From positions 1 through 7,460 of the IMG/VR virus record IMGVR_UViG_2693429524_000001: a stretch of 7,460 bases of DNA, one strand, 5' to 3'. This document shows, one piece after another, positions 756-971 of this stretch; positions within the stretch are counted from its first letter, which is position 1, and every line of letters starts with the position of its first letter. This DNA comes from a virus (taxonomy: Duplodnaviria > Heunggongvirae > Uroviricota > Caudoviricetes). Both the position numbers and the translations under genes were made by a program. The notes beneath the pieces were generated by a model that had not been told where the DNA came from, did not search any database, and saw only the letters and a program-made list of their open reading frames with translations.

Positions 756-971
756 TCACTTAAAATCCAGACTCCGGATAATTCTGTTGCGCTGAAACTC
801 ATTGTTGAGTTTGAACAACCGTCGAAGAACACGGTCACGCGGATAGCGTCGTGCGGCAGGTGAATGCTCATACAACTCATCAAGCGGCAAACTGGACGAT
901 GAACGATACCGATACCAACGCACCAACTCTTCACGAAAATTAGCCCTGACAAGCTCAGCTATCGTACTCAT
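756..971 (-). CDS. Hypothetical small basic phage protein, 71 aa, Arg-rich
   Basis: Complete ORF with a strong SD (GAGGAGG, 9 nt before the ATG at 971). Sits in the nin-region gene string between the 92-aa ORF and the Lar-like gene. I do not recognise a family. Confidence 0.5.
   Translation of the reverse strand: MSTIAELVRANFREELVRWYRYRSSSSLPLDELYEHSPAARRYPRDRVLRRLFKLNNEFQRNRIIRSLDFK

Follow-up and report, generated by a model that had tools for sequence, protein, structure and literature searches.

DUF7301, a small basic protein family encoded in the early operons of Shiga-toxin and other temperate enterobacterial phages

Gene content of the window

The window analyzed in this study, a 7,460-nucleotide stretch of phage DNA, covers the immunity, replication, and nin regions in reverse orientation (Table 1). 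On the minus strand, from high to low positions, the genes and signals follow in the order cro, cII, O, P, ren, a tR2-type terminator, a phiTE_015 family gene, a 71-codon ORF, Lar, and NinB. The phage's own N is also encoded, with a SieB-type superinfection-exclusion gene next to it. The 951 bases around the 71-codon ORF are 99.9% identical to VT1-Sakai, the Stx1 prophage of E. coli O157:H7 Sakai, and 99.3-99.6% identical to the corresponding DNA of many other Stx1 and Stx2 phages.

Table 1. Coordinates of the genes and signals discussed in the text, in positions of the window
Feature	Position	Strand	Evidence
NinB/Orf recombination mediator, overlapping the 3' end of Lar; VT1-Sakai H0042	106..552	-	Pfam NinB, E 3.2e-48
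Lar restriction-alleviation gene, next downstream of DUF7301; ATG at 743-745	509..745	-	Lar_restr_allev, E 1.9e-10; TIGR03655, 62 bits vs cut-off 39.6
Lar Shine-Dalgarno sequence GAAGGAG	751-757	-	
DUF7301 family CDS (971→756), 71 aa plus TGA; ATG complement of 969-971, TGA complement of 756-758	756..971	-	ORF list, PF23975, phrog_1785, tblastn, frame-specific purifying selection
Codons 43-52 (YPRDRVLRRL), top-conserved protein segment and start of helix 3	816..845	-	Alignments, codon comparison, breakpoints
Codons 26-38 (SSSLP..E....P), conserved turn and short helix, predicted hairpin tip	~860..896	-	Column conservation, AlphaFold
DUF7301 Shine-Dalgarno sequence GAGGAGG	981..987	-	Sequence read directly
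Spacer of 132 nt between phiTE_015 and DUF7301	972..1103	-	Scans and DNA alignment
phiTE_015 family gene (PF26207 / phrog_343), H0045; annotated as 92 aa from 1382	1104..1397	-	phrog_343, E 1.2e-29
tR2-type intrinsic terminator	1404..1427	-	Terminator scan; annotated as tR2 / rho-independent in Nil2 and 933W
cI	4077-4727	+	Window map
N	5041-5313	+	Window map
SieB-type superinfection-exclusion gene, next to N	5330-5911	-	Pfam, E 3.4e-24
Leftward-operon ORF	6055-6504	+	
Leftward-operon ORF	6557-6847	+	
Leftward-operon ORF	6844-7005	+	
44-aa ORF at the right edge of the window	7292-7426	-	

The sequence-only reading had described the 71-codon ORF as a gene for a very basic peptide with about 14 arginines, preceded by a near-consensus Shine-Dalgarno sequence and situated in the nin region. 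All of this agrees with our analysis, which adds the strand, left unstated there. The product (MSTIAELVRANF...SLDFK) contains 14 Arg, 2 Lys, 3 Asp, and 6 Glu, giving a net charge of +7 and a pI of 10.8. The GAGGAGG sequence lies 9 nt (TTTTAAGAA) upstream of the ATG; it is retained in two other alleles (L004 and L008), and distant homologues use other purine-rich Shine-Dalgarno sequences. The gene is placed downstream of the tR2-type terminator and upstream of Lar and NinB.

Downstream, the stop codon of the 71-codon ORF overlaps the Shine-Dalgarno sequence of Lar, which is located 5 nt before the Lar ATG, so that the two genes make up a single, closely packed translation unit. Upstream, the phiTE_015 assignment is further illustrated by PF26207 matches on orthologs of the neighboring gene. 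The 132-nt spacer that separates this gene from the 71-codon ORF yielded no promoter, terminator, or Rfam match. It is co-conserved with the phiTE_015 module and missing where the homologous ORF directly follows tR2 and a NinA-like mini-ORF. Further, no coding-strand promoter, no nearby Rfam match, and no terminator besides tR2 were detected in or around the ORF; on these scans, an RNA element or a promoter at this position was rejected.

Identification of the DUF7301 family

As the window contains 52 ORFs of at least 40 aa, a 71-aa ORF is by itself uninformative. This one rises above chance because it is conserved, as seen from its Pfam score, from about 96 protein clusters of Enterobacterales, and from a frame-specific pattern of codon substitution. 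Though the ORF had been considered unassigned, the comparisons identify it as a genuine and already catalogued gene for a small basic protein of Shiga-toxin and other temperate enterobacterial phages. Its product is 100% identical to H0044 of VT1-Sakai and to ORF30 of Nil2, and 98.6% identical to orf6 of 933W, annotations that date from about 1999-2000. It matches the Pfam family DUF7301 (PF23975) end to end, residues 1-64 on positions 1-64 of the 65-position model, with 91.4 bits versus a gathering cut-off of 27 (E 3.8e-26). The match to phrog_1785 (E 2e-33) likewise covers residues 1-70 on positions 1-70 of 71. RefSeq names the product "DUF7301 family protein", and in some phage records it is annotated only as a hypothetical protein.

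The family core S-S-L-P..E....P....(Y)(P/R)-R-D-(R/K)-V-L..(L/I) is complete in the ORF product, which has S26, L28, P29, E32, P38, R45, D46, R47, V48, L49, and L52; the frequencies of these columns range from 0.73 to 1.00 among 52 aligned sequences. Catalogued members such as H0044, 933W orf6, Nil2 ORF30, and gp46 of BTP1 (STMMW_03602) share the length, the SSSLP...P...YPRDRVL core, and a place in an early operon. The ORF is thus a full-length member in which we found no difference from the family.

All 52 aligned relatives match PF23975. Searching 1.8 billion representative proteins, and then extending the search with a profile, gave about 96 clusters, all with PF23975, from sources that include Escherichia, Shigella, Salmonella, Serratia, Enterobacter, Jejubacter, and Ewingella; Klebsiella, Cronobacter, and Erwinia phages were added by tblastn. 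In tblastn, a 97-100% identical protein is encoded in 182 phage records, all of E. coli and nearly all named Stx phages. The DNA of the ORF was found in 551 of 5426 complete E. coli genomes (about 10%), and one variant of the gene occurs on at least 1000 contigs.

DUF7301 is the sole Pfam family matched by the ORF product at E<=1. In agreement with the earlier impression that the ORF stands outside the known Nin families, there is no Pfam match to NinB, NinE, NinF, NinG, NinH, or NinX, which occur on other genes of related loci. The NCBIfam scan of the protein found no model for DUF7301, and the PADLOC scan returned no family at E<=1. A search of the accessible literature retrieved no paper on the family or on its phage genes, and two accessory-gene screens do not contain the conserved motif in their supplementary tables.

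Databases have listed the gene ever since Stx phages were first sequenced, and Pfam and PHROG families exist, so the discovery value of the present assignment is small. DUF7301 is one of many conserved but little-studied small genes of Shiga-toxin prophages, present in about one-tenth of complete E. coli genomes. The useful products of the analysis are a clean gene model, which separates DUF7301 from a spuriously extended Lar, and a structural hypothesis, namely a basic hairpin tip. A role in early phage development, in induction of toxin phages, or in counter-defense would carry some practical interest.

Names taken from the 90%-identity protein cluster of this protein (P0001) can mislead, as the cluster also includes genuine Lar sequences, for instance P0115 and P0109. 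The explanation that its "Lar family" names are simply misnamed DUF7301 proteins was rejected, since true Lar sequences are lumped in. Their presence is presumably an artefact of clustering, brought about by fused gene models.

Coding potential and the adjoining Lar gene

Eight DNA homologues with 43-95% nucleotide identity were compared in all frames. Only the DUF7301 frame stays open throughout the eight, and its pN/pS is 0.34-0.72 versus about 0.8-2.7 in the two shifted sense frames; the one frame that ties with it is the antisense frame with the same third codon positions. Omega in the DUF7301 frame is 0.27-0.70 in comparisons with unsaturated dS. Every homologue compared has its own purine-rich Shine-Dalgarno sequence. 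Distant members use different codons for the R-D-(R/K)-V-L segment (CGT/CGA, CGT/AAG/AGG, GTT/GTG/GTA, CTT/TTG/CTC/TTA), and selection therefore acts on the protein. Taken as comparative evidence, these data identify the ORF as a real protein-coding gene. Lack of conservation in this frame in related phages, which the sequence-only reading had named as a point against the ORF, is contradicted both by these eight homologues and by the clusters found across Enterobacterales.

The same reading had raised the possibility that the ORF is a non-gene, the out-of-frame 5' shadow of a longer Lar gene starting upstream. Such a gene model has a basis in the window, where the Lar frame is open for 71 codons 5' of the Lar ATG (509-958, minus strand), and in existing annotation: the re-annotated RefSeq phage records NC_049943, NC_011357, and NC_004813 label the stretch as Lar-like, ORF31 of Nil2 is an extended Lar model, and the 262-position phrog_599 profile carries an N-terminal extension. 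However, two other alleles (L008 and L010) have the Lar frame closed five codons 5' of the same Lar ATG, many DUF7301 loci have no Lar gene at all, and Lar has its own Shine-Dalgarno sequence. Further, pN/pS in the extension frame is about 0.8-1.3, compared with about 0.5 in the DUF7301 frame, and by this measure the extension evolves neutrally. The closed frame, the pN/pS near 1, and the Lar-free loci rule out the extended model, and we regard the shadow explanation as hardly credible. The upstream opening of the Lar frame in the window is fortuitous and overlaps the DUF7301 gene.

The records that call this stretch Lar-like, Nil2 ORF31 among them, omit the DUF7301 gene, and the phrog_599 profile appears to include such Lar extensions; the call is probably a propagated gene-model error. 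The Lar/Ral restriction-alleviation proteins (PF14354, TIGR03655) are comparable to DUF7301 in size, and the genes adjoin with close-packed translation. Lar is of the Cys4 zinc-ribbon type, whereas DUF7301 is read in another frame, lacks the Cys motif, and does not match Lar.

Genomic neighborhoods across phages

In E. coli phages and in phages of the BTP1 type, the DUF7301 gene is situated in the nin region, after the replication genes and tR2 and before NinB, with Lar being optional. In the Lar-free loci it overlaps the start of the gene in the NinB position. In a Salmonella prophage (L022), it also follows O and P and is flanked by Ead/Ea22 upstream and a dATP/dGTP pyrophosphohydrolase gene downstream. 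In other Salmonella loci and in Serratia and Klebsiella phages, it resides among ea-type accessory genes (Ead/Ea22, EaA, DUF551), and in some Serratia loci it adjoins the integrase. The neighbors thus vary, including phiTE_015, NinA-like, Lar, NinB, Ead/Ea22, DUF551, and dNTP pyrophosphohydrolase genes. Judging from these gene orders, DUF7301 is a free-standing accessory cassette that moves between slots of the two early operons in temperate Enterobacterales phages.

The most frequent candidate for a partner is the phiTE_015 gene, which adjoins DUF7301, on either side, in 11 of the 20 fetched loci. The other nine lack it, and with the neighbors varying as described, a fixed operon partner was rejected. 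In another allele class, phiTE_015 is located directly downstream of DUF7301, with one base between stop and start. The phiTE_015 protein is acidic, both in the window and in loci L014-L017 (positions 3718-4074), and could possibly be a non-obligate partner of opposite charge.

The DUF7301 gene was detected in 183 phage records (tblastn, E <= 1e-5), all but one from E. coli or Stx phages, out of 401 phage records matching some part of the 951-bp query. Frameshifted, truncated, and fused natural copies are common, and natural deletions also exist. Because only these 183 of 401 records carry the gene, and because frameshifts, truncations, and deletions occur, our best guess is that DUF7301 is dispensable for phage growth.

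Mosaic alleles and rearrangement breakpoints

DNA alignment of the E. coli alleles reveals a 2x2 mosaic in which a middle module and a 3' module are swapped at a DNA-invariant core of about 30 nt. This core coincides with codons 43-52, and several deletions also end there. At codon 43/44 (CGC TAT^C^C G; loci L027-L032), the endpoints of four unrelated rearrangements fall within 3 nt. One fuses residues 1-40 of Cro to residues 44-71 of DUF7301 (P0031). In the other three, residues 1-43 of DUF7301 are joined to a lambda-D-like capsid decoration gene (P0023), to a myovirus tail gene (P0097), and, as an in-frame hybrid present on 23 contigs among those read, to an ORF similar to gp60 of mEp043 (P0024). 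Short microhomologies of 4-10 nt (TATC, CGCTAT, and GACGC-TATC) were found at the three junctions with a checkable parent, the tail-gene junction (L030) being outside this comparison. Ordinary microhomology-mediated deletion together with detection bias may account for the clustering of breakpoints. The mEp043 gp60-like protein was also considered as a hidden relative of DUF7301 and rejected, the hhalign probability being 0.3%.

These observations bear on the idea that the conserved entity is a DNA element, either a recombination joint of about 30 nt or a small hairpin at codons 43-52, and that the reading frame is incidental. The core is almost invariant in close E. coli alleles, including synonymous sites, while the flanking modules differ; four independent rearrangements end inside it; and a weak DNA hairpin places the breakpoints in its loop. 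The hairpin, however, is not significant (z = -1.86, with 9 of 200 shuffles folding at least equally), and conservation of the 57-residue N-terminal part as protein extends across genera. The different codons used for RDRVL or RDKVL in distant members largely refute the idea, which we consider very improbable. A purely DNA-level element, like an annotation artefact, is essentially excluded.

Predicted structure and conservation

The AlphaFold2 model, built from the 52-sequence alignment, consists of a helix at residues 3-25, a turn and short helix at 26-35, an extended basic loop at 36-43, and a final helix at 44-69 (mean pLDDT 88.5, pTM 0.57). The same architecture was predicted for a 37%-identical Salmonella member (pLDDT 82). 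Over the models, pTM is 0.50-0.57, so that the packing of the two helices and any oligomer are uncertain. Neither a transmembrane nor an amphipathic membrane segment is seen in the model.

Most of the conservation lies in residues 1-57, the C-terminal third being variable, and it is strongest in the connection between the helices and at the start of the last helix (S26, L28, P29, E32, P38, R45, D46, R/K47, V48, and L49). At columns 18, 21, 33, 41, 45, 47, 50, and 51, positive charge rather than residue identity is kept, and the K/R-interchangeable columns cluster at the predicted hairpin tip; acidic residues are kept at columns 11, 14, 32, and 46. The median net charge of the family is +9 and the median pI is 10.6, with 51 of the 52 members net positive. 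A close allele (P0008) has a net charge of -1 due to its acidic C-terminal tail.

The profile and structure-based homology searches proposed in the sequence-only reading recovered PF23975 and phrog_1785, and no nucleic-acid-binding family or fold. With the family profile, hmmsearch against PDB gave no match at E<=10. Foldseek against PDB gave best E values of 6.1 and 7.2 for the two models, and against BFVD a best E value of 4.3 for the first. Pfam and PHROG scans of the 52 relatives revealed no recurring second family, the only additional matches being noise (ESCRT-II on three long members and RMF on one). By the PDB profile and Foldseek searches, DUF7301 is not a recognizable member of a solved nucleic-acid-binding fold, which does not in itself exclude binding.

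Possible functions of DUF7301

In phage lambda, genes behind tR2 are delayed-early and need antitermination by N. From the gene order and lambda biology, DUF7301, carried between tR2 and Lar/NinB in the delayed-early rightward operon of an Stx lambdoid prophage, would be made only when N lets transcription from pR pass tR2. The product is predicted to be a strongly basic helical hairpin of 71 residues, whose last helix opens with the near-invariant RDRVL. A helical hairpin of this size cannot be an enzyme and must therefore act by binding; we suggest that it is a small binder acting stoichiometrically. The positive hairpin tip (columns 33, 41, 45, 47, 50, and 51) would contact DNA or RNA, or else an acidic host protein, and the outcome would be modulation of an early host or phage process with no catalysis.

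Since the conserved positive tip is the obvious contact surface, we favor binding of a polyanion, DNA or RNA, as a tentative assignment held at somewhat less than even confidence. The family-wide basic charge is consistent with it. On the other hand, the PDB, BFVD, and Pfam searches gave no sequence or fold similarity to nucleic-acid-binding families, one allele carries a net negative charge, and several conserved charges, D11, E14, E32, and D46 versus R18, R21, R47, and R50, could be no more than salt bridges stabilizing the hairpin.

Ranked close behind is binding to an acidic host protein. DUF7301 may possibly be a small inhibitor or modulator of a specific protein of the host or of a competing phage, for example a counter-defense or host-takeover factor, as are other small proteins of the nin and ea regions. 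The hairpin tip could then serve as a protein-protein interface, its basic charge complementing an acidic target, a proposal to which we give slightly lesser credence. The neighbors point in this direction, as they include anti-restriction and host-modifying genes, with Lar directly downstream and a Dam methylase two genes further. So does the hopping of the cassette between variable accessory slots of both early operons. Moderately high omega (0.3-0.7) and a fast-evolving C-terminal third are typical of host-interaction genes, and the most conserved part of the protein is a loop, not a helix face. The PADLOC result and the search for the motif in the supplements of the two accessory-gene screens, both negative, argue against this proposal, and the uniformly high positive charge fits a polyanion at least equally.

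A small, basic, delayed-early product, silent in the lysogen because its gene is located behind tR2, might also be a host-killing or growth-arresting peptide of the early lytic program. Truncated and frameshifted prophage copies are common, as if leaky expression were costly. Intact copies are nevertheless very common as well, both among complete E. coli genomes and as the variant found on at least 1000 contigs. Given also that the model lacks a membrane segment and that Pfam, NCBIfam, and PADLOC revealed no similarity to known toxin families, a toxic peptide seems quite improbable.

In function, the closest analogies to DUF7301 are Rop and NinH, although the sequence and fold comparisons back neither. 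Rop (Rom) of ColE1 is a 63-aa helical hairpin that dimerizes into a four-helix bundle and binds RNA. DUF7301 resembles it in its small size and its predicted antiparallel two-helix hairpin, and a Rop-like dimeric bundle binding nucleic acid is, by analogy, a plausible working model. The turn is tight in Rop, whereas DUF7301 has an 18-residue connection, which is its best-conserved part; no sequence similarity to Rop was seen, and Foldseek against PDB gave no Rop match and nothing with an E value below about 6. NinH (PF06322) is a small, basic, Fis-like DNA-binding protein of the lambda nin region. It is similar in length (about 68 aa), charge, delayed-early position, and dispensability, and co-occurs in DUF7301 operons. 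There is no sequence similarity between them, and NinH has a helix-turn-helix while DUF7301 is predicted to form a two-helix hairpin with a long conserved loop; the likeness may be taken as an analogy of context only. Finally, the arginine-rich-motif antiterminators, such as the N proteins of lambda and P22 (N_peptide, PF25694), are also Arg-rich early phage proteins. DUF7301 does not match N_peptide, and its arginines are spread over the predicted hairpin and do not form an N-terminal arginine-rich motif.

A more speculative idea, which we think rather unlikely, is that DUF7301 could be a structurally unclassified small effector, the first of its kind, namely a basic hairpin in which the conserved loop and not the helices forms the active surface. 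Its target would be a host nucleic acid or protein, and its mode of action one undescribed for temperate phages. Under the same idea, the invariant core of the gene might double as a preferred crossover or breakage site that reshuffles the cassette and its neighbors among lambdoid genomes.

Other open reading frames of the window

Three ORFs of the leftward operon follow the SieB-type gene on the plus strand. None of them has a Pfam match, and the 149-aa ORF among the three apparently encodes a membrane protein. The 44-aa ORF at the right edge of the window, which had no Pfam match at E<=0.01, contains …TWVDWYNNRRLLGRLGHTPPAEAEKAYY… and looks like a possible C-terminal end of an IS3-family transposase. 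If IS3-like, it would suggest that an insertion sequence abuts the early-left region.
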